A stretch of 64,000 nt of DNA from Oscillospiraceae bacterium (GCA_022793675.1 JAAWDH010000020.1:3297-67296); one strand, 5' to 3'; numbered from the stretch's first letter, positions 18,287 to 61,052 are shown. Program-made: numbers and translations. The notes: a model not told the origin generated them from the letters alone.

Positions 18287-18310
18287 AACTCCTCCTTGAA
18301 TTGTCTGATT

Positions 18311-18328: not shown

Positions 18329-18334
18329 AATAAT

Positions 18335-18362
18335 ATAATAACACAATTCTGGGAAATGTCAA
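18335..18362 (-). promoter_or_regulatory. sigmaA-type promoter of the YtrA-ABC operon
   Basis: Minus strand: TTGACA-16 nt-TATTAT with TGT extended -10 (TTGACATTTCCCAGAATTGTGTTATTAT). Confidence 0.65.
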
Positions 18363-18507
18363 GGGGGTTTTTGAAATTTTTTTCTGGCTTTTTCCAGCAG
18401 TCTAAAACCTGGCAAGAAAAGGCATACTAGAAGCGCAAAGAATTCCCAGCGATAAATCTTGAAAAACCGCGCATGGTAATTGTGTGTACCGGTTGTACCG
18501 ACAGACC

Positions 18508-18983
18508 ATTCGCGGCCAGCTGTGCTGGCAGACAGCAAGCCGGATTTCTGCTGCAGATAGACATGGCTGGTTCTCTTGCGGTCACGGGCAGGCAATTTAA
18601 GGAAGGAGATTTCGCTTGCTGCGGCAAGCGACCGAGGGCTCTGCCAGCTTTCGGCTTGACGAAAGCTAGACCCGCGATTTTTTGAAAAAAATCGAGTAAA
18701 ACTTTTTTCGCCAGGGCAACTGTGTGCAAAGCCATAAACATCTACTGCGTCGATAAGTTTTCTGGTTCTGCGCATCGACGCAGTAGGCGTGCAACTTTGC
18801 GCTGACAGGTACCCGGGCGATTAAAAGTTTTGCGGAGCTTTTTCAAAAGCGACCGTACTCCCGTACCCTATCGGCAGAACCGACGCAGTAGGCGTGCAAC
18901 TTTGCGCTGACGGGTACCCGGGCGAGTAAAAGTCTTTGCTAAGCTTTCTTCAGAAAGCGTCGTACTCTAAAAGTGTCGTATCC
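18508..18983. repeat. composite repeat locus (degenerate C, D-head, B variant, H hairpin, then two tandem H'-B'-A' units)
   Basis: 13-bp perfect hairpin CTACTGCGTCGAT (18742-18754 / 18774-18786). Units 18774-18868 and 18869-18983 both read CGACGCAGTAGGCGTGCAACTTTGCGCTGAC.GGTACCCGGGCGA.TAAAAGT.... Confidence 0.85.
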
Positions 18984-19008
18984 TTTAAAATTTAGGAGGA
19001 AACCTATT

Positions 19009-20241
19009 GTGAGAAGAATCATAAAAAAACTGACGGCAGCCGCAGCGTTGGCTGTGATGCTGGTGATGGGGGCCGTAGGCTATCTGGACTGGGCGCTGCC
19101 GGACGACTATTACACCAGCGCGCCGGAAGCGTTCGGGCTGCCGCAGTACCAGCTGCTGACTGTTGAGCGGCAGGGAGGCGCAGAGGCGGTGCGCACGGCG
19201 CTGAACCCTGTCAAGGACGAGCAGGTGACGCTGATGCTTGGGGGCGTCGTGCCGGTCAAGACGGTGTCGCTGCACCAGACCGAAAAACGTTACCTGGTGC
19301 CCTGCGGCACGCCTTTCGGGTTAAAGCTGATCGCCGACGGGATTATGGTCGTTGGCCTCAGCCCGGTGGAGACGCTGGCGGGCATCCAGTGCCCGGCTCA
19401 GAGCGCCGGTCTGCGGAAAGGGGACATTATCCGCGCAGCCAACGGCGTTTCCCTATCGTCTTTCCAGCAGCTGGCGGAGATGGTGGAGAAAGCCGGCGGG
19501 CAGACCCTGCGGCTTTCGGTAGTCCGAGGCGGCGACGCCTTTGAAGCGCTGGTGACGCCGGTGCAGTCGGTATCCGGGGTGTTCCAGTGCGGGCTTTGGG
19601 GCCGGGACAGCTCGGCAGGTATCGGTACGGTGACCTTCTACGACCCGGTGACCGGGGCTTTCGGCGGGCTGGGGCACGGGGTCTGCGACGTGGATACCGG
19701 GGATTTGATGCCGCTGGGCAGCGGCGAGGTCGTGCAGGCCTCCATCCTCGACGTCGTCCCCGGTACAGCCGGTTCCCCTGGGGAGCTGCGCGGCAGCTTT
19801 TCCAGTGGCTTTTCAGCAGGGATTCTCTTAAAAAACACGACCAGCGGGGTCTTCGGGCTGCTGCGTACAGCGCCGGTGCGAAGCGGCCCGGTGGAGGTCT
19901 GCCCCCGCCAGGAGGTAGTCGCCGGGCCGGCGCTGATCCTCGCCACCCTTTCCGGGAACGAGCCTGCCGTCTACAGCATTGAAATCGAACGGGTCAGTTA
20001 TACCGACGGCAGCGCTTCCAAAAACATGGTCATCCGGGTGACCGACCCAAACCTTTTGGCTATCACTGGCGGCATTGTCCAGGGGATGAGCGGCAGCCCG
20101 ATTTTACAGGACGGCCGTCTGGTGGGGGCGGTAACCCATGTTTTTGTCAACGATCCCCAGCGCGGATATGGGATTTTTGCCGAAAATATGATAGACGAAT
20201 TGGATGGAACAAAGGTATACGGGGACGAAAAAGCGTCATAA
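19009..20241 (+). CDS. spoIVB: SpoIVB peptidase (S55), stage IV sporulation signalling protease
   Basis: GTG 19009 lies behind AGGAGG. There is a PDZ region (GLRKGDIIRAANG) and the catalytic motif GIVQGMSGSPILQDGRLVGAVTHVFVNDPQRGYGIF. The conserved position is immediately upstream of spo0A. Confidence 0.9.
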   Translation: MRRIIKKLTAAAALAVMLVMGAVGYLDWALPDDYYTSAPEAFGLPQYQLLTVERQGGAEAVRTALNPVKDEQVTLMLGGVVPVKTVSLHQTEKRYLVPCGTPFGLKLIADGIMVVGLSPVETLAGIQCPAQSAGLRKGDIIRAANGVSLSSFQQLAEMVEKAGGQTLRLSVVRGGDAFEALVTPVQSVSGVFQCGLWGRDSSAGIGTVTFYDPVTGAFGGLGHGVCDVDTGDLMPLGSGEVVQASILDVVPGTAGSPGELRGSFSSGFSAGILLKNTTSGVFGLLRTAPVRSGPVEVCPRQEVVAGPALILATLSGNEPAVYSIEIERVSYTDGSASKNMVIRVTDPNLLAITGGIVQGMSGSPILQDGRLVGAVTHVFVNDPQRGYGIFAENMIDELDGTKVYGDEKAS

Positions 20242-20405
20242 TTGGAAAAACAGAATATACAATTTCCAGTAAACAAAATTTTAATACACGATGCGATGAA
20301 TTCTTGCCTTATTTTGGTATTAAAGAATGATAAATCCATGTAATGAACAGAACGTTTTCCTGCCATTAGGTGAAAAAATCCTATAATCTACGCTATCTTT
20401 TATAT

Positions 20406-20412
20406 TTCGACA
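20406..20412. promoter_or_regulatory. 0A box (TTCGACA = reverse complement of TGTCGAA) upstream of spo0A
   Basis: Exact match to the Bacillus/Clostridium 0A-box core, 180 nt upstream of the spo0A ATG in an AT-rich region. Confidence 0.5.
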
Positions 20413-20502
20413 AAATGCACGTTTATTTTATAGCGATAGTTACAAACATAGAACGTTATACTTGAAACAAAAAGAGAAATTCAGAATCTGTCAACAAAAT
20501 AC

Positions 20503-20531
20503 TTGCTATTTTCCGAAAATAGTGCTAAAAT
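20503..20531 (+). promoter_or_regulatory. candidate sigmaA promoter of spo0A
   Basis: TTGCTA-17-TAAAAT, 60 nt upstream of the ATG. Confidence 0.4.
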
Positions 20532-20590
20532 ATTGCTGTACAAATCAACAGCAGAACGGTTTGGGAACATCAAAACTGGAGGATAAACAA

Positions 20591-21373
20591 ATGGGAATGT
20601 ATAAACGGATTTTGATCAGCGACGATTCGGCTGAATTCCGGGCCTTATGCCAGGAAAGGCTGACCGAAAAGGGGTATTATGTCATCCTCAAGAAACGGGA
20701 TGGCCTGGAAGTCCTGTCTGCCATCCAGTCTGAGCGTCCAGACTTAGTGGTGATGGATGTCCAGATGCGGGGCATTGACGCATTGGGGATCCTGGGTGCG
20801 CTGAAAGGGCAGGCTGCGGATACGACCTTCCTCGTGACTTCGTCCTTTGAAAACAATATTGTCGAACGGGCTGTGTCGGAGGATTCCCGCTGCTGCTATA
20901 TGCTCAAACCGGCGGACGCCAACGTCTTGCTTGACCGGATCGATTTTATTTGCAGCCGGGACTTTTCGTCGCCGCAGGCCAGGCAGCCCAAAACGGTCAC
21001 CGTCCAGCAGCTGGAGGTCATGGTCACCGGGATCCTCCATAATATCGGCGTCCCAGCCCATATCAAAGGCTACCATTACCTGCGCGATGGCATCATCCTA
21101 TCTTTGACCGAGCCGGCTGCCATGAGTTCAGTGACCAAGGAGCTTTACCCCACCATCGCCAAGCATTTCAGCACCACAGCCTCCCGCGTAGAACGCGCCA
21201 TCCGTCACGCCATCGAAGTCGCTTGGGACAGAGGGGATGTGGACGTGCTCAACTCCTACTTCGGCTACACCATCCAGAATACCAGAGGGAAACCTACTAA
21301 TTCGGAGTTTATCGCGATGATTACGGATAAGATCCGGTTACAGGTACATCTGGAAGAACAAGGACAGCTTTAA
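20591..21373 (+). CDS. spo0A: sporulation master regulator Spo0A
   Basis: The receiver has SDD, D in VVMDVQM, T in LVTSS and K in MLKP. The C-terminal Spo0A_C domain reads HNIGVPAHIKGYHYLRDGI...TASRVERAIRHAIEVAWDRG...KPTNSEFIAMITDKIRL. ATG 20591 lies behind GGAGGA. Confidence 0.95.
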   Translation: MGMYKRILISDDSAEFRALCQERLTEKGYYVILKKRDGLEVLSAIQSERPDLVVMDVQMRGIDALGILGALKGQAADTTFLVTSSFENNIVERAVSEDSRCCYMLKPADANVLLDRIDFICSRDFSSPQARQPKTVTVQQLEVMVTGILHNIGVPAHIKGYHYLRDGIILSLTEPAAMSSVTKELYPTIAKHFSTTASRVERAIRHAIEVAWDRGDVDVLNSYFGYTIQNTRGKPTNSEFIAMITDKIRLQVHLEEQGQL

Positions 21374-21391
21374 GCTGCTGGCCTTAGAAAG

Positions 21392-21430
21392 CTGCCATGG
21401 CAAGTATACGCTATGGCAGTTGAATTTTTT
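21392..21430 (+). terminator. spo0A terminator
   Basis: CTGCCAT...ATGGCAG stem, then TTGAATTTTTT. Confidence 0.7.
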
Positions 21431-21440
21431 AGGGAAATTT

Positions 21441-21534
21441 GTCGCTTTCTGGCCGCTTTCTGAAGAGAAGCTCTAGCTTAGCAAAGACTTTTAATCGCCA
21501 GGGTACGCATCTGCGCAGATTTGCCCGCGTCGAT
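21441..21534 (+). repeat. partial copy (B with AGCTTAGC insertion + degenerate H)
   Basis: CGCTTTCTGAAGAGAAGCTCTAGCTTAGCAAAGACTTTTAATCGCCAGGGTAC matches the left arm of 41274 and 56091. Confidence 0.75.
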
Positions 21535-21628
21535 AACTGCTGCTAATTTAAAAAATTTGCAGCAGGGCTTTATTTTTGAGGAAAAAAGGTGTATACTGAT
21601 AAAAGTAAAAAGAAAGGTGGCGGGGGCG

Positions 21629-28230: not shown

Positions 28231-28332
28231 GGGGGGTACGGGAGTACGGGTCGCTTTTGAAAAAGCTCCGCAAAACTTTTAATCGCGGGGCAGTCGTCAG
28301 CACTCACAAAACATCCTACAGCGTCGTGTAGG
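28231..28332 (+). repeat. half copy (A-B-x-H)
   Basis: GGGGGGTACGGGAGTACGGGTCGCTTTTGAAAAAGCTCCGCAAAACTTTTAATCGC...CCTACAGCGTCGTGTAGG. The A-B part is nearly identical to 38392-38440. Confidence 0.85.
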
Positions 28333-34346: not shown

Positions 34347-34551
34347 AAGGGGATTTCGCTCGCTGCGGCGAGCGACCAAGGGCTCTGCCCTGGACCCGCT
34401 CAAGGGGCGCGCCCCTTGAGAATCCCAATCCTTGGCAACATTAGGAACTTGTTTTCGACGCAGTAGGCGTGCGGGTCTGTGCTGACGTGTATCCGGGCGA
34501 TTAAAAGTTTTGCGGAGCTTTTTCAAAAGCGACCGTACTCCCGTACCCCCC
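34347..34551. repeat. composite copy (D-head, 22-bp perfect palindrome, H'-B'-A'), ends 1 nt from the glnN stop
   Basis: GAAGGGGATTTCGCTCGCTGCGGCGAGCGACCAAGGGC..., then CTCAAGGGGCGCGCCCCTTGAG (34399-34420), then CGACGCAGTAGGCGTGC...CCGGGCGATTAAAAGTTTTGCGGAGCTTTTTCAAAAGCGACCGTACTCCCGTACCCCCC. Confidence 0.85.
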
Positions 34552-34552
34552 G

Positions 34553-36640
34553 TTAGTCCATATACCACAACATCCGGCTGTAGTTAGGCAGCGGCCAGTA
34601 TTTTTCACCGCAGACGGCTTCCGCAGAATCTGCCGCTGCGCGGAGCACGTTCATGGCGGGGATGACCTGGTCATGGTACGCCCTAGCCGAAGCGAGGGCG
34701 TCCTTTTCCGCAGCCGCCGCTCCGCGGGCTTTGTCCAGTACTTCAATGGCGTCGCTCATGGCGTCGGCGCTGGCGGAAAGCTTTTGCAGCAGCGTAGTTT
34801 CTGCCCGGACGGAGATGGCCTGGGAAACCGCCTTCTTAGCGGCGGCGGCAGCGGCGATTTTCTCCATATAGGCGGCAATCGCCGGCATCAGCTCTTGGTT
34901 GGCCATTTGCAGCATCGTCAGCGCCTCAATATTCAGCACCTTGGCATACCCTTCCAGCGATACCTCGTAGCGGGCGTGCATCTCCACCGGGCTTAGCACC
35001 CCAAACTCTTCAAAAAGCGCAATGTTCTTTTCCCGGAGCAGCGCCGGCAGGGCGTCTATCGTAGAAGGCAGGTTCTGAAGCCCGCGGCGGCCGGCTTCCT
35101 CCACCCATTCGTCGGCGTAGCCGTTGCCGTTAAAAATAATGTTCTTATGCGCCTTCAGTGTCGCCTTGATCAGCCCCATTGCAGCAGCGCTGAAATCCTC
35201 CGCCTTTTCCAGCGCGTCGGCAAATTCCCGCAGCACTTTGGCCGTTGCCGTGTTGATGACCGTATTGGCGTCGGCAATGTTCATATTCGAGCCAGGCATC
35301 CTAAACTCAAACTTATTGCCAGTGAAGGCAAACGGCGAGGTGCGGTTGCGATCGGTGTTGTCTTTCGTAAACTTCGGCAGCACCGCGACCCCCAGGTCCA
35401 TCGCCACCCGTTCGGGGCAGGTGTAAGCCACATCGTCCGCCAGCGAATCGATAATCGCCCCCAGCTCGTCGCCGACAAAAATCGAAATAATGCTGGGCGG
35501 GGCTTCGTTGGCTCCTAGGCGCCGATCGTTGCCGGCGCTGGCTACTGCCGCCCGCAGCAGATCCTGGTAATCGTCCACAGCCTTGATAACAGCCGCAAAA
35601 AACAGCAAGAATTGCAGGTTTTCCATCGGGGTCTTGCCTGGGTCGAGCAGATTGGCGTCCGGCGTGGAGATTGACCAGTTGTTGTGTTTGCCGGAACCGT
35701 TGACGCCGGCAAACGGCTTTTCGTGCAGCAGGCAGACCAGGCCGTGGCGTTCGGCCACCTTTTTCATCATTTCCATCGTCAGCAGGTTTGCGTCTACCGC
35801 GGCGTTGGTGGTCGTAAAAACCGGCGCTAGCTCGTGCTGGGCGGGGGCGACCTCGTTATGCTCCGTCTTAGCTGGGATCCCCAGCTTCCAAAGCTGGCCG
35901 TCCAGCTCCTTCATATAAGCCGATACCCGGGTGCGCAGCGTGCCGAAGTAGTGTTCGTCCAGCTCCTGCCCTTTGGCGGGCGGGCAGCCGAACAGGGTGC
36001 GCCCAGTGAGGATCAAGTCCAGCCGTTTGGCGTAATCCTCCTTGTCAATCAAAAAGTATTCCTGTTCCGCCCCGACCGTGGTCATCACCTGGGGGACTTC
36101 CTTGCCAAAAAGCTTCAAAATCCGCCGGGCCTCATTGCTGATGGCGCTCATCGAGCGCAGCAGCGGCGTCTTTTTATCCAGCGCTTCGCCAGTGTAGCTG
36201 CAAAAGGCGGTGGGGATGCACAGCACCCCGTCTTTGATAAAGGCGTAGCTGGTGGGGTCCCAGGCGGTGTAGCCCCTGGCTTCGCAGGTAGCCCGCAGCC
36301 CCCCCGACGGGAAAGAGGAGGCGTCCGGCTCGCCCTTAATCAGCTCCTTGCCGGAAAATTCCATGATTACGCCGCCGTTCTGGCTGGGGTTGATGAAGCT
36401 GTCATGCTTTTCGCTGGTGATGCCGTTTAAAGATTGGAACCAGTGCGTAAAATGGGTCGCGCCCTTTTCGCAGGCCCAGTCCTTCATGGCGTTGGCTACG
36501 ACATTGGCCACCCCCAGATCGAGCGGCTTGCCTTCGTCGATGGTCTTGCGCAGCGCTTTATAGGTATCGTGGGGCAGGCGCTGGCGCATCACGGCGTCGC
36601 CGAAAACCATACTGCCGAAAAGTTCGGGGATCGTACTCAT
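34553..36640 (-). CDS. glnN: glutamine synthetase type III
   Basis: 695 aa. The N-terminus MSTIPELFGSMVFGDAVMRQRLP.DTYKALRKTIDEGKPLD and the size are typical of GSIII. Confidence 0.9.
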   Translation of the reverse strand: MSTIPELFGSMVFGDAVMRQRLPHDTYKALRKTIDEGKPLDLGVANVVANAMKDWACEKGATHFTHWFQSLNGITSEKHDSFINPSQNGGVIMEFSGKELIKGEPDASSFPSGGLRATCEARGYTAWDPTSYAFIKDGVLCIPTAFCSYTGEALDKKTPLLRSMSAISNEARRILKLFGKEVPQVMTTVGAEQEYFLIDKEDYAKRLDLILTGRTLFGCPPAKGQELDEHYFGTLRTRVSAYMKELDGQLWKLGIPAKTEHNEVAPAQHELAPVFTTTNAAVDANLLTMEMMKKVAERHGLVCLLHEKPFAGVNGSGKHNNWSISTPDANLLDPGKTPMENLQFLLFFAAVIKAVDDYQDLLRAAVASAGNDRRLGANEAPPSIISIFVGDELGAIIDSLADDVAYTCPERVAMDLGVAVLPKFTKDNTDRNRTSPFAFTGNKFEFRMPGSNMNIADANTVINTATAKVLREFADALEKAEDFSAAAMGLIKATLKAHKNIIFNGNGYADEWVEEAGRRGLQNLPSTIDALPALLREKNIALFEEFGVLSPVEMHARYEVSLEGYAKVLNIEALTMLQMANQELMPAIAAYMEKIAAAAAAKKAVSQAISVRAETTLLQKLSASADAMSDAIEVLDKARGAAAAEKDALASARAYHDQVIPAMNVLRAAADSAEAVCGEKYWPLPNYSRMLWYMD

Positions 36641-38365: not shown

Positions 38366-38750
38366 GAGGATACGAGAGGTACGGAGAGTACGGGGGTACG
38401 GGTCGCTTTTGAAAAAGCTCCGCAAAACTTTTAATCGCCCGGGTACGCATCAGCACAGCTTAATCCACCTACTGCGTCGGTACCGCTGACCAACCGCGAC
38501 ATCTCACGCCATGTTTTTCGCTTACAAGCCGCCGAGCAGAGCCAGGCGGCAAACGTGAACAGTCTGCCGGCACAGCCGGCCGCCTACTGCGTCGATAAGC
38601 AGATGGAACAGCCTGCCTGTAACCGCGGGAGAACCGGCTATGCCTTTCCGCAGCAGAAATCCGGCTTGCTGGATTTCCGACGCGAAGTAAAAGTTTTGCG
38701 AACTTAGCTCTGCTAAGCTTGGCTTTCTTTAAAAGCGACCGTACTCTAGG
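38366..38750. repeat. full composite copy filling the purA-guaA spacer (A x4 - B - H - E - H - C' - B' - A')
   Basis: Starts the nucleotide after the purA stop and ends 20 nt before the guaA ATG. 38431-38579 is the inverted twin of 53474-53622. Confidence 0.9.
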
Positions 38751-40461: not shown

Positions 40462-41172
40462 GTGATTTTCTTGACCTACGTCTTTTCTGACATCCACGGC
40501 TGCTATGGCCAGTACAAAACGATGCTGGAAAAGATCCGTTTTGGGCCGTCGGATAGCCTTTATATCCTCGGCGACGTAATCGACCGCGGCCCGGACGGCG
40601 TCAAAATCCTGCAAGATATGATGGGGCGGCCCAATGTCTTCCCCATCTTGGGCAACCACGAGCTGACCGCTGCCCTCTGTCTGCCCTGGCTTTTGAAGGA
40701 GATTACCCACGAAAGCCTTGCCGAGTTGGACGGGATAACGCTTGCCGCCCTTGGCGACTGGCTGGAAAACGGCGGCGAGCCGACCCTCAAGGCCATCCGG
40801 CAGCTTAGCCGCGAAGAGCAGGCGGAGCTGTTGTCCTATATCCGGGATATGGAGCTTTACGCGGAAGTGGAAGTACAGGGCCGCAGTTTTGTCCTTGTCC
40901 ATGCCGGGCTTGACCATTTTGAGCCGGACAAGCCGCTAGACGAGTATGACCTGGAAGATTTCCTTTACGCCAGGCCAGACGCCGACAGCGCCTATTGGCC
41001 GGAAAAAACGGTAGTTTTGGGCCACACCCCCACGAGGCTTTTGAGCGGGCAGGATAAAATCCTGTCAAAGGGAACCATGATCCGCATTGACTGCGGCTGT
41101 AATTTCGGCGGCCCATTGGGCTGCCTTTGCTTAGACACCATGGAGGAATTTTATGTCGAAGCAAACCGATAA
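40462..41172 (+). CDS. metallophosphoesterase (PrpE/ApaH-like Ser/Thr phosphatase family)
   Basis: SDIHGCY, GDVIDRGPDG and GNHE motifs. Confidence 0.85.
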   Translation: MIFLTYVFSDIHGCYGQYKTMLEKIRFGPSDSLYILGDVIDRGPDGVKILQDMMGRPNVFPILGNHELTAALCLPWLLKEITHESLAELDGITLAALGDWLENGGEPTLKAIRQLSREEQAELLSYIRDMELYAEVEVQGRSFVLVHAGLDHFEPDKPLDEYDLEDFLYARPDADSAYWPEKTVVLGHTPTRLLSGQDKILSKGTMIRIDCGCNFGGPLGCLCLDTMEEFYVEANR

Positions 41173-41273
41173 GACAATAAAAATACAGCGCGTCCTGCCA
41201 GGTACGCCGCTGTGGGCGGAGCTTATCCGCTATGCGGCGACCTCGACTTTATCTTTGAGAGAAAGCTTTAATT

Positions 41274-41516
41274 GGGGGAATACGGGAGTACGACGCTTTC
41301 TGAAGGAAAGCCTAGCTTAGCAGAGCTAAACTGCAAAGACTTTTCATCGCCAGGGTACCTAAATGCCCTAACATAAAATCCTACTGCGTCGGTAACAGGT
41401 GGTTCCGCTTACCGACGCAGTAGGATATTTTTAAGAGGCACTCAGATGTCTTAGCGATTAAAAAGTTTTGCAAGGCTTTTTCAAAAGCCGTCGTACTCCC
41501 GTATTCCCCCGTATCC
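41274..41516. repeat. complete palindromic copy of the modular intergenic repeat (MITE-like): A-B-H | H'-B'-A'
   Basis: 41274-41295 GGGGGAATACGGGAGTACGACG is the exact reverse complement of 41489-41510. There is an internal 17-bp perfect hairpin, TCCTACTGCGTCGGTAA (41379-41395 / 41409-41425). Core B is on both arms (left arm with an AGCCTAGCTTAGCAGAGCTAA insertion). Confidence 0.9.
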
Positions 41517-44102
41517 TTAGATATAGACGACGGGCAGCAGGATTTCGATTTCATTGCCGTTGTCCCAGCGGACGTTGATCCGGCAGAGGCCGCGTTCGCC
41601 TTCTTTCCCCTCCAGGATGGTGAAATAGTTGTCTTTGGCGGTCTCGCTGCCGTCTTCCGCTTCCCAGCGGACGGTAATTTCTGATGAGGAGAAGTTTCCA
41701 AATCCTATTTCCAGCAGCGCGCCGCTGGGGATGGTGTTATAGCCGATTTCTTCCGCTGCAAGCATCTGCAGCTGGCGGGCGTTCTGTTCCTCATTGTCTT
41801 CGCTGTTCCAGCGTTTGAACAAGACGGCTGTCTCTGGGATGATTTCCAACGCCATCCCTTGCGGCAGCATACGGCTTAGGTGGGCGGTGAGCACCTTGAC
41901 GGAAATGGGTAGGTCCTTGCTGGCAATATAGGCGGTGTTGGCCGGGGCGTTTCCGTCTTCCCAGCTTTCCAGTTGTAGGCCGCCTGCGCCGTCGGGGGCA
42001 AAGGACAGGATGCGGGTCAGGGTGCTGCCGTCGGTTTGCAGGACGTGGATGGCGGCTTCTATGCTGTCTGCCGCCGGATCCAGCGGCGCAGCGTAGGTTT
42101 CGCCGGGGACCCAGTTTGCCCCGTCGCTGATGTCTTGGAACATACCGCTGACCGTGACATTGAAGGTGCCAGGGATCGCGTCTTCCGGGATCGTAATGGT
42201 GAAGCTGCCGTTTTCGTAACGGATACCGCTTTGGATCTTATCGACCATAATCTGGCGTTCGTAGCTTGCAAATTCCGGTTCCAGTACCTCGGTTTTGTAA
42301 GCTTTCAGCTGGTCGAGAAGGGGCGCGTCTTCGCTTAGGGAAGTCTTCCCTTTCAGCCAGTCCATATACTCGAACATAGCTGCTTTTTGGTCTTCCCTGC
42401 TGAAGGTGATATGGCCGTCTAAGCTGCTGCAGAGTAAGAAGCTGTCAAGGAGGTGGTTATTCAGTTTGGCCGTGAAGCCGGCGATTTCCTCTGGCTCAAA
42501 CTCCATCCCATGCGGCCCAGTCGTCATTGCAAAGGATACCGAGGCTTCATCGGCGATCTGCGTTTCGCCCTTCTCGTTCAGCCAGAACAGCTGGTAGCTG
42601 TATTCTGCCGCGCCTTGGTAGACGGCGGGGCTATAACAGAGGAGGTAGTCTTTGCCGTCTATGGCGCAGAGGCTGTAGGCGCGCCAGCCCACATGGGAGG
42701 TGGAGGCTATATCGCTCCAAAGGGTTTCCCCAGCGGCATTGGTTACGGTGAGGGTAACGTTGCCGTTGCCGTTTTCCAGCCCGGTCAAGTCGCAGGTTAT
42801 CGTTTCTGCCGTCCCATCATGGGTCAGGTCAGCGGTGAAGGTGGTCGTATCTGGGTAATAGGCGTCATTCTGCTCTTTTAGGAAGGTTTCAAAGCCGCCT
42901 TCGCGGATATCCATTTCCCCGCCGAATGGGGACGACAACAGGACATAGTCCGGCGGGCCTTCCATTTCTCCGCTGCCGGCCGTCAGCGTCCAGCCGTTTT
43001 CCTTTAAAGGGTAACGCATCACATAAAGGCCGCTGCCGATGTCTTCCCCTTCAAAGCCTGCAAGGTCGTCCCAGGAAAGCCCTTCCCCTTTTTGGGCAAG
43101 CGCGCGGACGTCATCGATACCCATTGCCTGGAGGCTGCCGCTGGGGGGAGCGCTGCCTGCCGCGGTCCTGGGGTTGGCGGCCAAACCCAGCGCCAGCGCT
43201 GCTGCCGCCGCCATAGCCGCCGCCGTCAACCAGAAGGCTGGTTTCTTATAATTCAGCACATTTTTGATTCTCATCTTGATATTCTCCTCTCCAAAGGCCA
43301 GCGGGCCGGCGTACCAAACCTGCCGCCCTGCCGCCATTGACAAAAGCGAAGCCGAATATTCCTTTTTGATCTCCGGCCCCAGTTTTTTAAGCACTTGTTC
43401 ATCGCAGGACATTTCCATATCCGCCGCCATCAGCCGGAAGGCCAGCCAGGCCAGCGGGTTGAACCAGTGGATGCAGAGTGTAAGGTTCGCCAGCGCCTTT
43501 ATCAGATAATCCCGCCGGCGGATGTGGGTCAGCTCATGCAGCAGCACATATTCCTTTTCACGCTCCGGAAGTCCGGCTGGCAGGTAAACGCGGGGTTTTA
43601 TCAGCCCCAGCACAAACGGGGTCTTCAGCCCGGACTGCTCGTAGATATTCCCCTGCTGCCAGCGGGCGTTTTTCAGCTTCCCGTGCAGCCGGATTGAAAG
43701 GGCGGCGCTTCCGCCCAGCATCGCCGCCCCTACGCCCAGCCAAACCATAGCCAGCGCCGTCATTGCGTCGGGCCGCTTTGCCGGCGTCGGAACCGGCGAG
43801 ACATCGGCGGGAGACGTCGGCCCCGGCAGGATTTGAGCGGGCGGCAAAGGCTGCGCCGCTGCCGGCGGCGTCCAGACAGGGCCTGCGGCGGGGGACTGCG
43901 CGGCGGGTATCCTCGGCAGCAGGCTGAAGCCGCTTTCAAAAGAGACTGGGCAGCAAAGCCTGAAAAGCACGACTATCCAAAGGCAGTAGGAAGCCGTCCG
44001 GGGCGCCTTTTTCAAGCAAAACCTCGCTAAAGTTACCGCTGCGATGACAAACGATCCTGTCAGACTCATCCGTAAAACGGCGGCGAAAACCTCCCGCAGC
44101 AT
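41517..44102 (-). CDS. M56-family BlaR1/MecR1-like membrane metalloprotease with a large non-PBP extracellular domain
   Basis: HEXXH in LLHELTHIRRRDYL and the TM topology fit BlaR1. The C-terminal ~550 aa lack SxxK/KTG penicillin-binding motifs. 1-nt overlap with blaI. Confidence 0.85.
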   Translation of the reverse strand: MLREVFAAVLRMSLTGSFVIAAVTLARFCLKKAPRTASYCLWIVVLFRLCCPVSFESGFSLLPRIPAAQSPAAGPVWTPPAAAQPLPPAQILPGPTSPADVSPVPTPAKRPDAMTALAMVWLGVGAAMLGGSAALSIRLHGKLKNARWQQGNIYEQSGLKTPFVLGLIKPRVYLPAGLPEREKEYVLLHELTHIRRRDYLIKALANLTLCIHWFNPLAWLAFRLMAADMEMSCDEQVLKKLGPEIKKEYSASLLSMAAGRQVWYAGPLAFGEENIKMRIKNVLNYKKPAFWLTAAAMAAAAALALGLAANPRTAAGSAPPSGSLQAMGIDDVRALAQKGEGLSWDDLAGFEGEDIGSGLYVMRYPLKENGWTLTAGSGEMEGPPDYVLLSSPFGGEMDIREGGFETFLKEQNDAYYPDTTTFTADLTHDGTAETITCDLTGLENGNGNVTLTVTNAAGETLWSDIASTSHVGWRAYSLCAIDGKDYLLCYSPAVYQGAAEYSYQLFWLNEKGETQIADEASVSFAMTTGPHGMEFEPEEIAGFTAKLNNHLLDSFLLCSSLDGHITFSREDQKAAMFEYMDWLKGKTSLSEDAPLLDQLKAYKTEVLEPEFASYERQIMVDKIQSGIRYENGSFTITIPEDAIPGTFNVTVSGMFQDISDGANWVPGETYAAPLDPAADSIEAAIHVLQTDGSTLTRILSFAPDGAGGLQLESWEDGNAPANTAYIASKDLPISVKVLTAHLSRMLPQGMALEIIPETAVLFKRWNSEDNEEQNARQLQMLAAEEIGYNTIPSGALLEIGFGNFSSSEITVRWEAEDGSETAKDNYFTILEGKEGERGLCRINVRWDNGNEIEILLPVVYI

Positions 44103-44467
44103 TACGATCCCTCCTTATAGCCGTCAATCAGCGCCTTCAGCTCCTCGATCTGCTTATCCGACAGCTTGCGCCGTTCCATAAACGCCGTCACAAACCGCGG
44201 CAGCGAACCGTTAAAAGCCTCTTCGACGAACTGCTCGCTTTGGATGCTTTGATACTCCTTCCTAGAGATCAGCGAAGTCACCACTGCCTGCTCGTTCTTG
44301 AAAAAACCGCGGCTGCAAAGCTTTTTCAGCACCGTATAGGTGGTAGATTTTTTCCACTGGAAAGCCTCCTCGCAAAGGCGGCAAAGCTCCCCTGATGGCA
44401 GCGGTTCCCTCTCCCAGATTAGCTCGGCGAACCGCAGTTCGCCCTCTGCCAGCTGATAACGGACCAT
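44102..44467 (-). CDS. BlaI/MecI/CopY family transcriptional repressor
   Basis: 121-aa winged helix (...WKKSTTYTVLKKLCSRGFFKNEQ...). Coupled to the M56 gene. Confidence 0.9.
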   Translation of the reverse strand: MVRYQLAEGELRFAELIWEREPLPSGELCRLCEEAFQWKKSTTYTVLKKLCSRGFFKNEQAVVTSLISRKEYQSIQSEQFVEEAFNGSLPRFVTAFMERRKLSDKQIEELKALIDGYKEGS

Positions 44468-44606: not shown

Positions 44607-45183
44607 TGCCAAGCAGTGGTTGCCGACAGTAGGCGTCGGCCGGCGTGTCGCCGCAGACAATTCGCGGCCGGCTGTGCCGGCAGACAATTCGCGGCCGGCT
44701 GTGCCGGCAGACAATTCGCGCCGGAAATCCAGCAAGCCGGATTTCTGCTGCGGAAAGGCATAGCCGGTTCTCCCGCGGTTACGGGCAGCCGGCTGTGCCG
44801 GCAGACAATTCGCGCCGGAAATCCAGCAAGCCGGATTTCTGCTGCGGAAAGGCATAGCCGGTTCTCTCGCGGTTACGGGCAGCCGGCTGTGCCGGCAGAC
44901 AATTCGCGCCGGAAATCCAGCAAGCCGGATTTCTGCTGCGGAAAGACATAGCCGGTTCTCCCGCGGTTACGGGCAGCCGGCTGTGCCGGCAGACAATTCG
45001 CGCCGGAAATCCAGCAAGCCGGATTTCTGCTGCGGAAAGGCATAGCCGGTTCTCCCGCGGTTACGGGCAGGTGATTCCAGCTGCTCCTATCGGCAGTAAC
45101 TACCGACGCAGTAGGCGGCTATGGCTGCGCACAAAGGTACCCTAGCGATGAAAAGTCTTTGCCAAGCTTTCTTCAGAAAGCGG
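44607..45183. repeat. composite locus: 2 extra 27-bp sub-units + 4 x 94-bp tandem C units + H'-B'
   Basis: Period exactly 94 bp (units start at 44695, 44789, 44883 and 44977), with 2 SNPs between units. Followed by CCGACGCAGTAGGCGGCTATGGCTGC...GGTACCCTAGCGATGAAAAGTCTTTGCCAAGCTTTCTTCAGAAAGCG. Confidence 0.9.
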
Positions 45184-45221
45184 AAAAAAGCGGCAAGCGT
45201 CCTTAAAAGGAAGCCTGCCGC
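45184..45221 (-). terminator. terminator of the small acidic protein gene
   Basis: Minus strand: GCGGCAGGC...GCTTGCCGC, then TTTTTT. Confidence 0.7.
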
Positions 45222-49642: not shown

Positions 49643-49873
49643 GGGTACGGGGATACGAGGGGTACGGGGAGTACGACGCTTTCTGAAGAAAGCTTGGCAA
49701 AGACTTTTAATCGCCCGGGTACCCGCCGGCACAGCTTTACACGCCTACTGCGTCGGTAGGGATAGCTGGAATGACCTGCCCGTAACCGCGGGAGAACCGG
49801 CTAAATTTTTCCGCAGCAGAAATCCGGCTTGCTGGATTTCCGGCGCGAATAGTCCGCGGCGACACGCCGCCCG
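49643..49873 (+). repeat. copy A x4 - B - x - H - C' (+ C-sub')
   Basis: GGGTACGGGGATACGAGGGGTACGGGGAGTACGACGCTTTCTGAAGAAAGCTTGGCAAAGACTTTTAATCGCCCGGGTAC...CCTACTGCGTCGG...CCCGTAACCGCGGGAGAACCGGCT...GCAGCAGAAATCCGGCTTGCTGGATTTCCGGCGCG. Confidence 0.85.
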
Positions 49874-49911
49874 CAAAACACCGCCTGCGGCTGGGTATAC
49901 GCAGGCGGTGT
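49873..49911 (-). terminator. terminator of the Gfo/Idh/MocA-isomerase operon
   Basis: 12-bp perfect stem ACACCGCCTGCG/CGCAGGCGGTGT, followed on the minus strand by TTTTG. Confidence 0.75.
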
Positions 49912-53023: not shown

Positions 53024-53341
53024 TCACCCGACCAGCATACTGATGATAGCCGCTTTGGGGCGCAGGCCGACCGCTTGGTTGACAAGCTCGCCGTCTTTGA
53101 ATACCAGCAGCGTGGGGAAAGCCTCAATGTTGTAGGTTTCCACCAGTTCTGGTTCTTCGTCGACGTTGACCTTGCAGACCCGGATGCCGTCTACTTCTTC
53201 GGCGATCTGGTCGACGATAGGCGAAAGCATTTTGCAGGGGCCGCACCAGGCCGCCCAGAAATCCACCAGCACCGGCTGGCCCTTGGGGGCGTTAAGGACA
53301 TCGTTGTGGAAAGAAAGGGTTGTTGTTGTGATTACCGCCAT
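53024..53341 (-). CDS. trxA: thioredoxin
   Basis: WAAWCGPCK active site. ATG 53341 lies behind AAGGAGG. Confidence 0.9.
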   Translation of the reverse strand: MAVITTTTLSFHNDVLNAPKGQPVLVDFWAAWCGPCKMLSPIVDQIAEEVDGIRVCKVNVDEEPELVETYNIEAFPTLLVFKDGELVNQAVGLRPKAAIISMLVG

Positions 53342-53415
53342 AATTTTTACCTCCTTGAATTGCACGGGAACAAAATGCCCGCAAAAAATCGAAAAAGAGT
53401 TGAGTTTACTCTTCT

Positions 53416-53444
53416 ATTATAGTATAATAAAATCAATTTGTCAA
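53416..53444 (-). promoter_or_regulatory. consensus sigmaA promoter of trxA-trxB
   Basis: Minus strand: TTGACA-17-TATAAT. The -35 abuts the repeat element that starts at 53447. Confidence 0.7.
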
Positions 53445-53446
53445 AG

Positions 53447-53770
53447 CCGGCTGTGCCGGCAGACAGTTCGCGGCCGGCTGTGCCGGCAGACTGTTCGCGT
53501 TTGCCGCCTGGCTCTGCTCGGCGGCTTGTAAGCGAAAAACATGGCGTGAGATGTCGCGGTTGGTCAGCGGTACCGACGCAGTAGGTGGATTAAGCTGTGC
53601 TGATGTGTACCCGGGCGATTAAAAGTTTTGCGAGCTTAGCTCTGCTAAGCTTGGCTTTCTTCAAAAGCGACCGTACTTCTCGTACTCCTCGTACCCCTCG
53701 TACTCCTCGTACCCCTCGTACTCCTCGTACCCCTCGTACCCCTCGTACTCCTCGTACCCCCGTATTCTCC
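53447..53770 (-). repeat. copy C-sub x2 - E' - H' - B' - A' x11
   Basis: Inverted twin of the 38.4-kb copy. Ends in an 11-unit 9-bp tract (53672-53770, CGTACYCCT). Confidence 0.9.
53672..53770. repeat. 9-bp microsatellite, 11 units (CGTACYCCT)
   Basis: Read directly: cgtacttct cgtactcct cgtacccct cgtactcct cgtacccct cgtactcct cgtacccct cgtacccct cgtactcct cgtaccccc gtattctcc. Confidence 0.95.
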
Positions 53771-53814
53771 CCGTTTCTGGGAAAGATATGCAAGCGGCAA
53801 TGAAAGGAGCTGTT

Positions 53815-54996
53815 ATGGAAAAGTCCACCTTTCGCGACTGGATGCTTTATCTGGCCGTCCTTGTTTTCAGCGCCGCCTTTTTGGCGGGCGGCTGGCGCTA
53901 CGCCACTGCCGGCCGGCAGCTGCTGGGGCAGAATATCAACGGGACGGTGTCCCCGTCGGTCAAGGCGAAGCTTGTTGAAACAATCGCCAGCAACGAAATC
54001 TACAGCCAATATACCGGCGCTGTCACCGAGACCCGTACCGTCAGCTACGCCGTTTTTACCGAAGGGGCCGACAAAGGCAAACAGGTGCTGGTCACCCAAG
54101 TCATGGACAGCACAGCGATGCTGCTGGAAACGCCGTTTTCGCCTGGCGACCGGGTGTTCGTTTACCAAGGCGAGAACGAGTACGGCGAGGCCCAATGGTT
54201 CGTAGCCGGGCCGGTGCGGACGCCCTGGCTTTTGGGGCTGACAGCAGCCTTTGTGCTGCTGGTGGTGCTGTTTGGGCGGGGGAAAGGGGTCCGGACGATC
54301 CTTTCGCTGGCCTTGACCTGCATGGCGGTGTTTTTTGTGCTGGTACCGGCGATTGTCAGCGGCCGCAACATTTATCTGTGGTCGATTATAACCTGCATTT
54401 ATACCATTATTGTAACCTTGTCGCTGGTAAGCGGCTGCACTTTCAAGAGCTTGGCGGCGGCGCTGGGGTGCCTAGGCGGCGTTGGGGTGGCGGGGGCGAT
54501 CACGTTAATCAGCGAGCGCGCTTTGCGCATGACGGGCTTGGTGGACGAGGACTCGATGCTGCTTCTGTTTATCAATGAAGAGCGCCCCATCGACTTGAAA
54601 GCGCTGATTTTTGCCGCCATTATCATTGGCGCGCTGGGGGCGACGATGGATGTTGCGATGTCCATCAGCTCCGCCCTTACCGAGCTGATGCGCAACCTGC
54701 CGGGGATGCCTTTCTGGTCTGTTGTCCGTTCGGGGCTTTCCATCGGCCAGGATATTATGGGCACAATGTCCAACACTTTAGTGTTGGCTTATGTAGGAAG
54801 CGGACTTCATGTAACGCTGCTGTTTTTGACCTATTACGAGCGGCTGGAAGACATCTTAAACGTAGAAATGATCGCAGCAGAGCTGCTTCAGGCGCTGGCG
54901 GGGAGCATCGGCATCCTTTTCGCCATCCCAGCTACGACGTTGGCCGCCGCCTTTTTCCGGCGGCCCTTCAGCAGACAAGAAAAGGAGGCCTCTTGA
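53815..54996 (+). CDS. YibE/F family membrane protein
   Basis: ATG 53815 lies behind AAAGGAG. One N-terminal TM helix, an extracellular segment and ~7 further TM helices. The YibE/F-like pattern is recognised from memory. Confidence 0.7.
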   Translation: MEKSTFRDWMLYLAVLVFSAAFLAGGWRYATAGRQLLGQNINGTVSPSVKAKLVETIASNEIYSQYTGAVTETRTVSYAVFTEGADKGKQVLVTQVMDSTAMLLETPFSPGDRVFVYQGENEYGEAQWFVAGPVRTPWLLGLTAAFVLLVVLFGRGKGVRTILSLALTCMAVFFVLVPAIVSGRNIYLWSIITCIYTIIVTLSLVSGCTFKSLAAALGCLGGVGVAGAITLISERALRMTGLVDEDSMLLLFINEERPIDLKALIFAAIIIGALGATMDVAMSISSALTELMRNLPGMPFWSVVRSGLSIGQDIMGTMSNTLVLAYVGSGLHVTLLFLTYYERLEDILNVEMIAAELLQALAGSIGILFAIPATTLAAAFFRRPFSRQEKEAS

Positions 54997-56090: not shown

Positions 56091-56357
56091 GGGTACGGGA
56101 GATACGAGAGTACGACGCTTTTTTGAAAAGAAAGCCTAGCTTAGCAAAGCTAAGCTGCAAAAAACTTTAATCGCTAGGATACACGCCTGCACAGCCATAG
56201 CCGCCTACTGCGTCGATAGCTGCTGGAACCACCTGCCCGTAACCGCGGGAGAACCGGCTATGTTTATCCGAAGCAGAAATCCGGCTTGCTGGATTTCCGG
56301 CGCGAATTAAAAGTTTTGCGGAGCTTTTTCAAAAGCGACCGTATTCCCCCGTATCCC
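56091..56357. repeat. full composite copy (A x3 - B(ins) - x - H - C' - B' - A' x2), starts 1 nt after the hemW stop
   Basis: Left end GGGTACGGGAGATACGAGAGTACGACGC, right end GCGACCGTATTCCCCCGTATCCC (inverted). The internal modules match 38366 and 49643. Confidence 0.9.
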
Positions 56358-56505
56358 GAGATGGAAATTACAAAACGGTTACAAATTTTGGGGCAGAGTG
56401 GATTCCTGCTGGGAAATTGTTGTGAATATACCAAAAAATATCCCGGAAATTTTAGGCTATTCCTACGAAGTTTTCTTTTTGAGGCAGAAATGGGTAACAA
56501 AACAG

Positions 56506-59514: not shown

Positions 59515-59631
59515 ATGTGGAGTTACGAGAAACGGTTGATTCACCCCGTGAAGATCAAATGCCCCGACCCCCAGGCGGCTACCGTGATCATGAGCCAGCT
59601 TGGTGGGCCGCATTCCAATAAGTTATACTAG
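59515..59631 (+). pseudogene. cotJC: 5' fragment of cotJC (Mn-catalase-family spore coat protein), interrupted after ~codon 32
   Basis: The ATG is 3 nt after the cotJB stop. MWSYEKRLIHPVKIKCPDPQAATVIMSQLGGP matches the conserved CotJC N-terminus (B. subtilis MWVYEKKLQYPVKV...IEQYGGADGELAA). The sequence then diverges to HSNKLY* inside the element end. This ORF is not in the ORF track (<60 aa). Confidence 0.8.
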
Positions 59632-61052
59632 AGCCAATAAAAAATATCGAACTTATTCTCTGCCCGATAGAAGACGATTTTTTCAATAAACTGTTTGGCA
59701 GCACTGTTTCGTTCGGCATTTGTAGCCTGGGGGTCCAACAGGATCTCCAGGTTCTTTTTATTTTTGTCAAGAAAACGCCGGCGGATTTCTTCGGGCGACC
59801 ATTCCTCTTTTGGCGTGAGGGAAGCTTCCAGCTTATGGATGTCGGCTTCGATCCGCGCCTTGCTGTCCTGGAATTCTTCCAGCGTGTAGGCTCCAGCTTC
59901 ATAAGCTTCGCGGGCGCGGCGCATCCGGGCCTTGGCCTGCTCCAGCTGCTTTTTAGCGAGCTTGCTGCCGGCGTCGTCTTCCTTGCTTGTCAGGTGCAGG
60001 TGGGACAGGAAAGCTCCGCTTTCAAAGGTCGCGGCCAGTACCGGCAGCACAGCTGCCGAGACGGCGTCGGTGGTGGTGTAATGGCTGACTTTGCAGGTGC
60101 CATGGGCATAGCGGGTACACTGCCAGGAATCCGTTTTGCCGCCGCTTGCGAGGGTTGCGCCGCAGGCTGAGCAGCGCAGCAGCCCGTTATAGAGCCGGGG
60201 CGCGGCGTTTGCGGTATGGTCATGGCGGCGGTAACGCGCTTTCTGTTCAGCGATGCGCTGCTGGACGGCCTCCCAAAGCTCTTTGCCGATAATTGGCTGA
60301 TGCTGGCCGTCAACGACTTCGACCTGTTCGCCGTAGTAATCCCGGCCGCCGTTATGGCTGGTGCCGCTGCGCAGCTTGCCGATGTAGACAGGGTTCCTGA
60401 GGATGTATTCGACCGTCCGGTTCTCCCAAAGCCGCCCTGTCCCCAGTGTGTTGGCCCATCCTGCCAGCGTCCGCAGCGGCTCGCCGGCGGCATAGCGGGT
60501 AAAGAGCTGCTGGACGAGTTCTGCTTCCTGCGGCACGACCTGATAGCAGCCGTCCTGATAGCAGTAGCCGTAAGGCGCGCCGCTGGTTGGCAGCCCGCGG
60601 GAAAGCCGTTCCTTCATGCCGCGTTTGACCTCGCCGCTGAGGTTGACGCTGTAATATTCGTCCATCCACTCAATGATCCGCTCAATCAGGCCGCCGAAGG
60701 GGCCGTCGGCCAGCGGCTCGGACACTGACACGACCTCAATGCCTTCCCGGCGGAGCAGCGACTTATAGACGATGGATTCCTCTTGGTTGCGGGCGAAGCG
60801 GGAAAACTTCCAGACCAGGATGACCTCAAAAGGCGTCGGCTTTTGGCGGGCCGCGGCAATCATCCGCTGGAACTCCGGACGCTTTTCAGCTTTCCGGCCG
60901 CTGATGCCGTCGTCTTCGCGGAAAACAAATTCTTCCGGCAATAGCAGCTCATGGCTTTTGGCATAATCCAGAATTATTTTCAGCTGGCTGTCGGGGCTGT
61001 ATTCCAGCTGGTCGTCGGTCGACACCCGAACGTAACAGGCGGCCGTGCGCAT
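59628..61052 (-). CDS. large serine recombinase (phage integrase type)
   Basis: Resolvase catalytic N-terminus AACYVRVSTDDQ, a recombinase domain, a zinc ribbon (CSACG...C..Y.HGTC) and a C-terminal coiled coil. 474 aa. RBS AGGAGG. Confidence 0.95.
   Translation of the reverse strand: MRTAACYVRVSTDDQLEYSPDSQLKIILDYAKSHELLLPEEFVFREDDGISGRKAEKRPEFQRMIAAARQKPTPFEVILVWKFSRFARNQEESIVYKSLLRREGIEVVSVSEPLADGPFGGLIERIIEWMDEYYSVNLSGEVKRGMKERLSRGLPTSGAPYGYCYQDGCYQVVPQEAELVQQLFTRYAAGEPLRTLAGWANTLGTGRLWENRTVEYILRNPVYIGKLRSGTSHNGGRDYYGEQVEVVDGQHQPIIGKELWEAVQQRIAEQKARYRRHDHTANAAPRLYNGLLRCSACGATLASGGKTDSWQCTRYAHGTCKVSHYTTTDAVSAAVLPVLAATFESGAFLSHLHLTSKEDDAGSKLAKKQLEQAKARMRRAREAYEAGAYTLEEFQDSKARIEADIHKLEASLTPKEEWSPEEIRRRFLDKNKKNLEILLDPQATNAERNSAAKQFIEKIVFYRAENKFDIFYWL

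Follow-up and report, generated by a model that had tools for sequence, protein, structure and literature searches.

Judged from its sequence, the element at 41274-41516 is an atypical AT-rich head-to-head (E-to-E) dimer of two diverged ~100-120-bp units, and it belongs to a lineage-restricted, dense, and modular family of non-coding repeats that are probably selfish, non-autonomous mobile DNA of the MITE/REPIN/BIME/BOX kind. A blastn search and a profile HMM built from aligned units located 15 full or near-full units and three partial units at 13 loci in the 64-kb window, by which we mean the whole stretch of DNA analyzed. The family and its associated modules occupy ~3.0 kb, or ~5% of the window. 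No description of it was found in Rfam or in the searched literature, and no paper was returned by a full-text search for its B motif; the type of element, exemplified by REP/BIME/REPIN, BOX, and Correia sequences and by MITEs, is well known. Genes for Spo0A, SpoIVB, and CotJ are present in the window, which places the host among the spore-forming Clostridia; the G+C content is 55%.

The perfect 22-bp terminal inverted repeats and the perfect 17-bp central hairpin reported in the preliminary description are both exact. Two copies of the 22-mer GGGGGAATACGGGAGTACGACG, at 41274-41295 (+) and 41489-41510 (-), agree at every position (22/22, 0 mismatches), and shuffled sequences gave 0 matches to it; the 17-mer TCCTACTGCGTCGGTAA at 41379-41395 is the exact complement of 41409-41425, with a 13-nt loop between them. 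A repeat finder delimited outer arms of 31 nt (90%; 41274-41304/41480-41510) and inner arms of 64 nt (72%; 41332-41395/41409-41472), and comparison of the left arm with the right gave 88 matches and 11 mismatches. The extra insert in the left arm was likewise confirmed as CTAGCTTAGCAGAGCTAAACT at 41312-41332, with no counterpart in the right arm, whereas the ~45-nt core ascribed to each arm fits the right arm only loosely. A 253-nt stretch containing the element is predicted to fold as DNA into one long hairpin (-77.4 kcal/mol, z -14.4), and as RNA with -127 kcal/mol (z -14.3) on the + strand and -141.8 kcal/mol (z -17.8) on the - strand.

The element lies between convergent metallophosphoesterase and blaR1-like (M56) genes, a gap that it was said to fill. 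This holds on the right, where an extra GTATCC repeat unit extends the element from 41274-41510 to 41516 and brings it against the stop codon (TTA, 41517-41519) of the Peptidase_M56 gene (861 aa), but 101 nt remain on the left, where the metallophosphoesterase gene ends at 41172. A 55-aa ORF (41153-41320) that would bridge this left gap has no Pfam match and is uncalled in public assemblies of the species; it and an antisense ORF are the only ORFs that overlap the 243-bp element. The modular, non-coding character of the element and its terminal inverted repeats are borne out, and there is no transposase inside it or anywhere in the 64-kb window. Transposase, RAYT, and recombinase genes are absent from the window apart from a prophage serine recombinase, and no autonomous relative with the same ends plus a transposase was found in the window or at any fetched locus.

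Two parts of the preliminary description did not survive the comparison of copies. The element is not an archetype, as the recurrent unit is its ~100-bp half, which stands alone at 14988, 21452, 28231, and 34452. A further half-unit, at 45099, is the end of a larger mosaic. Nor is the terminal inverted repeat fixed: the ends are 8-9-nt tandem repeats of variable number, and solo units have no second end. Uniqueness to the window, which had been named as counting against a mobile element, does not apply, since a self-search with 41274-41516 matched 12 other loci of what is a multi-copy dispersed family. One more fragment, at 5176-5215, falls outside the profile HMM tally, and a second inverted dimer lies at 18678-18860. 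The units are oriented without bias (8 on the + strand and 7 on the - strand) in a window that has no skew switch, and they occupy convergent, co-directional, and divergent gene contexts, including the divergent promoter regions at 18287-19008 and 53341-53815. The mosaic at 53446-53771 reaches the -35 box of the thioredoxin promoter at one end and the next gene's ribosome-binding site at the other. The density of the family is uneven along the window, with decayed fragments at 5176, 11912, and 21452.

From the outside inwards, a unit of ~100 bp comprises the usual TAG/TAA, A, B, an optional hairpin, C, D, and E. A is an array of GGRGWACG repeats that ranges from ~2 copies to 9.6 copies (53672-53757), and hairpin B lies ~15 to 95 nt from the outer end, depending on how long this array is. 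B is a short hairpin, GCTTTC-TGAA-GAAAGC or GCTTTT-GA-AAAAGC, whose pairing is kept through compensatory changes (GGC/GCC in the right arm of 41274-41516; CGA/TCG at 18706 and 5181). The optional second hairpin is CTAGCTTAGCAGAGCTAAGCT, the C box has the consensus GCAAARACTTTTAATCGCC, and the E box is CCTACTGCGTCG, with the consensus CCTACTGCGTCGRTA in the unit alignment. Between C and E lies D, a 30-nt segment of free sequence and fixed length. The pattern ACTTTTMATCGC-N30-CTACTGCGTCG (C-core, N30, E-core) has 8 matches, expected 0, with a spacer of always 30 nt; pairwise identity between units is 90% for C, 89% for E, and 54% for D, and D shows 0 gaps across 476 alignment cells. D can thus drift in sequence while the cores of C and E keep a constant start-to-start distance of 42 bp. 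Beyond E, units continue into unique DNA (solo units 14988, 21452, 28231, and 34452), into a loop and an inverted E (41274-41516 and 18678-18860), or into an F module, a 27-bp repeat, or a G module, the last forming a 94-bp tandem array with four copies at 44694-45070. The coordinates are collected in Table 1.

Table 1. Modules of the element at 41274-41516 and the other copies of the family in the 64-kb window
Feature	Position	Strand	Details
Module A, left outer end	41274-41295	+	GGGGGAATACG-GGAGTACG-ACG, exact 22-nt inverted repeat
Module B, left	41295-41311	+	Hairpin GCTTTC-TGAAG-GAAAGC
Optional hairpin, left arm only	41312-41332	+	CTAGCTTAGCAGAGCTAAACT; also in units 53629, 56160, and 38700 and in L091
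Module C, left	41333-41350	+	GCAAAGACTTTTCATCGC
Module D, left	41351-41380	+	30-nt spacer, fixed length, variable sequence
Module E, left	41379-41395	+	TCCTACTGCGTCGGTAA, 5' half of central stem
Central loop, 13 nt	41396-41408		CAGGTGGTTCCGC
Module E, right inverted unit	41409-41425	-	
Module D, right unit	41426-41453	-	17/30 against left D, as for unrelated members
Module C, right unit	41454-41471	-	GCAAAACTTTTTAATCGC on the - strand
Module B, right unit	41474-41489	-	GGCTTTT-GA-AAAAGCC; clamp GGC/GCC against GC/GC elsewhere, a compensatory change
Module A, right outer end	41489-41516	-	Exact 22-nt inverted repeat plus one GGATAC unit; abuts M56 stop codon
B-C fragment	5176-5215	-	CGATTTTTT...AAAAAATCG variant
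Degenerate solo unit	11912-11994	-	Starts immediately after the stop codon of the upstream gene
Solo unit	14988-15080	+	
Mosaic between divergent genes	18506-18985		G-like relic, inverted dimer (18678-18757 +, 18773-18860 -), third unit (18876-18967 -)
Solo unit, degenerate E box	21452-21538	+	
Solo unit	28231-28330	+	
Solo unit	34452-34552	-	A end abuts glutamine synthetase III stop codon (34553-34555)
Composite, purA/guaA gap	38366-38750		Unit (+), F module, one 27-mer, second E box, G module, inverted A-B-C end
Mosaic	44617-45185		E relic, 27-bp repeat x3.3, 94-bp tandem unit x4, unit 45099-45183 (-)
Unit with A array before and G module after	49643-49880	+	Unit at 49668-49761
Mosaic	53446-53771	-	27-mer x2, F module, unit 53568-53677, 9-nt A repeat x9.6 (53672-53757)
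Composite	56091-56358		Unit (+) immediately after stop codon, G module, inverted A-B-C end

The two arms of 41274-41516 are not equally alike along their length. Their A and E parts are identical, unlike D, and the exact 22-nt and 17-nt inverted repeats have in common private variants (GGGGGAATACGG; TCC...GGTAA) that occur at no other copy, as would be expected if the element were a local, one-off inverted duplication of no wider significance. The two D segments, however, match at only 17 of 30 positions, no closer than unrelated copies, whose mean is 54%, and the more than 15 related units found elsewhere, in the window and on other contigs, refute this reading, which in our view has practically no chance of being correct.

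Evidence for insertion and rearrangement comes from the purA-guaA gap, which measures 38 bp in a related genus (GuaA 68% identical) and contains a 399-bp mosaic in the window. PurA stops at the same C-terminal residue position in the two, so that the repeat begins exactly at the ancestral stop codon. Between strains of ~99.2% identity (~0.7% apart), the left unit in this gap is swapped for the other subtype, and one strain lacks a ~100-bp F/E segment that the other has; 27 of the 44 differences lie inside 117 bp of repeat. Two assemblies have a 94-bp array of lower copy number, and the 243-bp element at 41274-41516 is invariant in four other assemblies. Presence/absence polymorphism, which the preliminary description had anticipated, was not seen for whole elements among the available strains, which are almost clonal (99-100% identical).

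A host-beneficial function at the RNA level was considered next to these observations, with 41274-41516 acting in cis as a bidirectional terminator or 3'-end stabilizer and the other family members as regulatory RNA modules. The very stable hairpin in both transcript senses is compatible with such a role, as are the compensatory changes in the B stems (GC/GC to GGC/GCC, and CGA/TCG) and the precise placement of units in operons between a stop codon and the next ribosome-binding site; in addition, no canonical terminator-like site follows the stop codon of either convergent gene. However, consensus scans found no terminator-like site in 41274-41516, with no U tract on either strand, and no sigma-70-like site in the element, the outward C'-B'-A' ends appearing weakly sigma-70-like by hand. 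Solo units are unstructured, folding like shuffles (z +0.9 to -2.2), and RNAalifold gave no consensus structure among them. The mismatches between the arms, when sorted into G-U and A-C, number 3 and 4, an absence of asymmetry that speaks against RNA-level selection on one strand. Units are found in both orientations and in promoter regions too, they are absent at the same intergenic site in the related genus, and a strong terminator within a ~400-bp mosaic between purA and guaA, where the relative has a gap of 38 bp, would be harmful. No Rfam family corresponds to the repeats: Rfam 15 gave 0 matches in the window at gathering thresholds and, at relaxed thresholds, chance miRNA-like hairpin matches only. 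We regard a beneficial RNA element as very improbable.

Several other identities were tried and rejected. ARAGORN found no tRNA- or tmRNA-like element. The D segment does not behave as a guide or spacer, as no D segment has a match of at least 13 nt outside the repeats in the window, and the units are not mini-ORFs, having no consistently open frame, no start codon, and no ribosome-binding site. Resemblances to CodY, CcpA, sigma-54, and lambda boxA/boxB sites, and to CsrA-type GGA loops in GUAC-GRGGA-GUAC repeats, were by-eye comparisons that proved unconvincing and were not used.

The outer ends of the units have a recurrent position relative to genes. At 10 of 17 ends, the triplet that immediately precedes the A array, in the outside-to-inside reading, is TAG or TAA; an intergenic frequency of 0.026 per position gives P ~3e-12, for end boundaries that were drawn by eye. 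Six of these triplets are real stop codons, belonging to purA, the radical-SAM gene ending at 56090, glutamine synthetase III, M56, the gene ending at 12011, and a phage connector gene on contig L091. The triplet may be the target, a duplication, or the element's own terminus. No consistent target-site duplication was found: the flanks are TT at 41274-41516, TAG/CTAG at 38366-38750, AG at 56091-56358, and AATTT for the element on contig L122, and some flanks are palindromic and could belong to the inverted repeat. Ends that coincide with stop codons are not new in kind, since a TAG stop is often provided by the termini of GTAG REPs, and where REPs separate convergent genes both ORFs are within 20 bp of them (PMC3733652).

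This likeness bears on the link to REP sequences and RAYT enzymes that the preliminary description had raised, in which the inverted pair would be mobile as single-stranded hairpin DNA by means of a RAYT or TIRYT (Y1 HUH) enzyme encoded once in the genome. The REP, REPIN, and BIME sequences of Proteobacteria are similarly extragenic and high-copy, and they occur as singles, as inverted dimers that form one hairpin, and as mosaics (PMC2817692, PMC3733652, PMC3116915). Their ends often touch or supply stop codons, as noted for GTAG REPs (PMC3733652), and singletons are found beside dimers, from which they can derive as remnants. Like them, the family described here is extragenic, high-copy, and mosaic, its inverted doublet has a short (13-nt) spacer and folds as one hairpin, its E box includes GTAGG, and its ends lie against stop codons. 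Some RAYT-like genes, moreover, have long inverted repeats, not REPs, on either side.

A REP, however, is an imperfect palindrome of 20-40 nt whose head stays unpaired and reads GT(A/G)G (PMC2817692, PMC3733652), GTAG or CGTC, whereas the unit here is ~100 bp and its GTAGG lies inside the E:E' stem. CAGTAGG, on which the proposed link had been based, falls within a stem solely because the dimer sets two E boxes against each other; no palindrome adjoins an E box that stands alone, and solo units are unfolded. The outer ends, unlike those of REPs, are variable tandem 8-9-mers, and an end-to-B distance of ~15-95 nt is hard to square with HUH cleavage geometry. Palindrome-associated elements derived from IS200/IS605 are marked by subterminal hairpins at both ends, a fixed distance away from the cleavage sites, and by strand-biased insertion; here B alone is conserved, and with 8 units on the + strand and 7 on the - strand there is no strand bias, while divergent-gene sites and their promoter regions are occupied as well. 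The A repeats do not conform to GGGGWSAS, the motif of TIRYT inverted repeats. The window contains no RAYT and no Y1 transposase, none being seen in the ~66 kb of genome inspected, and the host belongs to the Clostridia; Firmicutes go unmentioned in the main text of the REP survey (PMC3733652). Taken together, the structure does not support the proposed REP/RAYT link, and a REPIN mobilized by such an enzyme appears unlikely to us.

Other families of small repeats provide further comparisons for the selfish, modular family that we prefer. BOX elements are modular, consisting of boxA, a variable number of boxB, and boxC, and no transposase is known for them. BOX, and also RUP and SPRITE, of Streptococcus pneumoniae resemble the present family in having a Firmicutes host, in being species-restricted and judged parasitic, and in their slow turnover, extensive secondary structure, and co-transcription with neighboring genes; they are reported to move rarely (PMC3049150). 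There is no sequence similarity between BOX and the family here, whose variable-number module is the outermost 9-mer and not, as in BOX, an internal 45-mer, and which has extra 27-bp and 94-bp tandem modules and a variable spacer of fixed length. Correia elements are non-coding sequences of 100-160 bp with inverted ends that are inserted at TA, adjoin genes, and are co-transcribed as hairpins, and no transposase is known for them; neisserial intergenic mosaics contain several repeat families per region. The inverted ends, gene-adjacent positions, and mosaic intergenic regions are features that these have in common with the Clostridia family, although the sequences are unrelated, and the fixed 26-bp inverted repeat and clear TA duplication of Correia elements are not seen in it. 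The neisserial repeat dRS3 is mentioned in the REP survey (PMC3733652). DDE-derived MITEs are likewise small, non-coding, and multi-copy, with conserved ends and variable interiors (as in the composites of the window and on contig L122) and with solo ends. Unlike them, the family has no known parent insertion sequence and no consistent target duplication, its ends are variable-number tandem repeats, and its end modules can form tandem arrays (contigs L110 and L125).

Contigs of the same species, 99-100% identical to the window, are present in GCA_949738835.1 and GCA_948504515.1 (NCBI metagenome-assembled genomes), in JGI sample 3300051405, and in a large number of Logan runs. The lineage stands apart: among 5.8 billion proteins, the closest GuaA from beyond the species is 71% identical, and the best among 185,579 species genomes is 64% identical. 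Short-read contigs of the species end within units, at 41472-41474, 28261-28273, 21479, 15058, 56317, and 53623, and for the adjacent gene blaI the longest contig is below 5 kb in 97 of 102 collection blocks. These breaks and short contigs are the mark of a genome-wide repeat, whose copy number across the genome is an extrapolation from one window and the contig breaks. The exact unit pattern has 0 matches in the 185,579 species genomes and no blastn match in plasmid or cultured-phage collections, and family members are absent from 80 Firmicutes guaA loci and from the contigs of the nearest relatives.

On other contigs, the unit pattern was found once among JGI metagenome contigs (L091), immediately 3' of the stop codon that closes a phage head-tail connector gene, once in IMG/VR (L114), where it sits exactly in the interval that separates a stop codon from the following ribosome-binding site of a phage tail operon, and in one copy adjoining a Clostridia S10 leader (L111). 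A protein search with the translated repeat gave three weak matches, which led to L110, L111, and L112. This search, together with a degenerate scan of viral contigs, showed that the outer A-B-C module occurs with other interiors in other organisms: L122 carries a ~530-bp element with inverted A-B-C ends and 62% G+C, L112 has two type-I ends, L110 has five tandem 101-bp units with B-C at the start of each, and L125 has tandem 104-bp units with 43% G+C. A near-identical B-C motif, GCTTTTTGAAAAAAGC-N3-GCAAAAACTTTT, is present in unrelated phage contigs of 32-65% G+C. On sequence grounds, the combination of constant ends and free interiors has the look of transposon-derived miniature elements.

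A host or phage function could instead account for the constant 30-nt length of the spacer and for the conservation of B-C across organisms. One version of this would have the repeats as architectural DNA, providing phased sites for a host DNA-binding protein, as BIMEs do with gyrase or IHF, and spreading by recombination rather than by transposition. A C-to-E distance of exactly 42 bp between core starts is four helical turns, and its maintenance without indels in D at 54% identity agrees with this, as do the almost base-for-base conservation of B-C in other organisms and the strain differences, which resemble gene conversion. Architectural DNA leaves unexplained, however, the copies in phage gene clusters, the TAG/TAA end motif, the variable interiors, and the absence from relatives; it has no known candidate protein, and the uneven density and the decayed fragments (5176, 11912, 21452) also count against it. 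On balance we consider it quite unlikely.

In a bolder form of the preferred mobile-repeat reading, to which we assign a small chance, the A-B-C end would define an undescribed superfamily shared by uncultured Clostridia and phage-like contigs and moved by a hypothetical enzyme that reads C and E 42 bp apart and inserts at TAG/TAA. If this were true, stop codons would be habitual landing sites, and GCTTTTTGAAAAAAGC-N3-GCAAAAACTTTT would be a widely shared recognition site and not a coincidence.

For the lineage-restricted family itself, we propose that the units would depend for their movement on a trans-acting enzyme whose gene lies elsewhere in the genome. This enzyme would recognize double-stranded DNA, at the A-B-C end and probably also at the C and E boxes with their constant phasing. 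Insertion may prefer TA-containing sites of the form TAG/TAA, a preference that would explain the frequent coincidence of ends with stop codons. Inserted copies would then be reshuffled by recombination between copies and by replication slippage, and at 41274-41516 two units would have ended up back to back between convergent genes. Because the copies have diverged, the family looks old, and it may no longer move, or move rarely. Once in place, the element would give either convergent transcript a very stable predicted hairpin without a U tract and would be part of at least the M56 transcript. The hairpin may affect the 3' end of the M56 mRNA, through stabilization or RNase III cleavage, which would probably be a by-product and not the reason for the element.

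Dense REP/BIME-like mosaics are textbook knowledge in Proteobacteria and hardly documented in Clostridia, and here ~5% of 64 kb of an uncultured spore-former consists of such repeat DNA. The repeats are the break points of short-read assemblies of the species and a source of spurious ORF calls, and they put large hairpins in operons (purA-guaA), directly against stop codons and ribosome-binding sites; they therefore matter for genome binning, annotation, and expression studies in this lineage. Given a complete genome, the end module that recurs across hosts and phages, together with the fixed-length spacer between two boxes, would provide a handle on the mobilizing enzyme.

In the mosaic lying within 53340-53815, one edge of the repeats coincides with the base adjoining the -35 box of the thioredoxin-like gene promoter, and the other edge lies about 30 nt 5' of the ribosome-binding site of a + strand gene starting near 53815. 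The non-repeat DNA upstream of that + strand gene is too short to hold a promoter of its own, and guaA (38771) and spoIVB (about 19009) likewise have no promoter space outside the repeats. The coordinates of the features discussed here are collected in the table.

Features of the window, with coordinates and strand
Feature	Coordinates	Strand	Remarks
Strong TTGACA / TATAAT promoter	53445-53410	-	thioredoxin-like gene
27-bp repeat	44637-44724		3.3 copies; precedes the 94-bp array
94-bp tandem repeat	44694-45070		4.0 copies, 98% matches
blaI-like repressor and Peptidase_M56 genes	41517-44467	-	
Promoter-like site TTGACA-17-TAGACT	44550-44522		upstream of the blaI-like/M56 pair
1763-aa ORF	5325-10616	-	
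Large serine recombinase gene	59628-61052	-	directly after the cotJC start fragment

The 27-bp and 94-bp tandem repeats (together 44637-45070) are both hairpin-rich. The 94-bp unit varies in copy number within the species: the window carries four copies, assembly L002 one fewer and assembly L001 two fewer. Tandem repetition was also seen in another organism with a G+C content of 55.6% (contig L110, from JGI 3300058023), where five 101-bp units at 9950-10460 fill the entire intergenic gap between two co-directional genes, each unit starting with a type-II B-C module and ending with a T-rich tract.

A B-C-like motif, GCTTTTTGAAAAAAGC-N3-GCAAAAACTTTT, possibly related to the window family, is present in unrelated viral contigs with G+C contents of 61-65% (L119, L121, L123, L124, L126, L129, and L130), 53% (L115), and 32-43% (L113, L117, L120, and L127), and it has no match in Rfam. 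In most of these contigs the stem is lengthened by 3 covarying nucleotides on either side of the hairpin (GGCC/GGC, CCC/GGG, CGC/GCG). In the G+C-rich contigs the motif lies within a stretch of about 130 nt, arranged as B, C, hairpin, C' and B'-like hairpin, which is sited between structural genes and occurs twice per contig, in some as inverted copies on either side of a scaffold-like gene.

Within the M56 gene pair, the gene for the blaI-like repressor (Penicillinase_R, 121 aa) shares one base with the gene for an 861-aa Peptidase_M56 protein, whose long C-terminal part has no recorded domain. No Pfam domain is recorded for the 1763-aa ORF, which has internal 12/24/36-nt tandem repeats at 5646-5739.

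In the related genus, one strain (L095) carries an integrase-bearing island directly downstream of guaA (11647-21530), which encodes Mob_Pre and a DNA methylase together with an RE_SinI enzyme and also has SMODS and SLATT genes; the locus comparison found no such island in L093 and L094. In the window, only the first ~33 codons of cotJC (MWSYEKRLIHPVKIKCPDPQAATVIMSQLGGP...) lie 3' of cotJA and cotJB, in a region spanning 59515-61052 and continuing to 64000, and this fragment is followed by the serine recombinase gene and by phage-like genes (Bro-N, KilA-N, and M78). The cotJC gene appears to be interrupted, and the region looks like an intervening prophage of the skin/SPbeta type within a sporulation gene.
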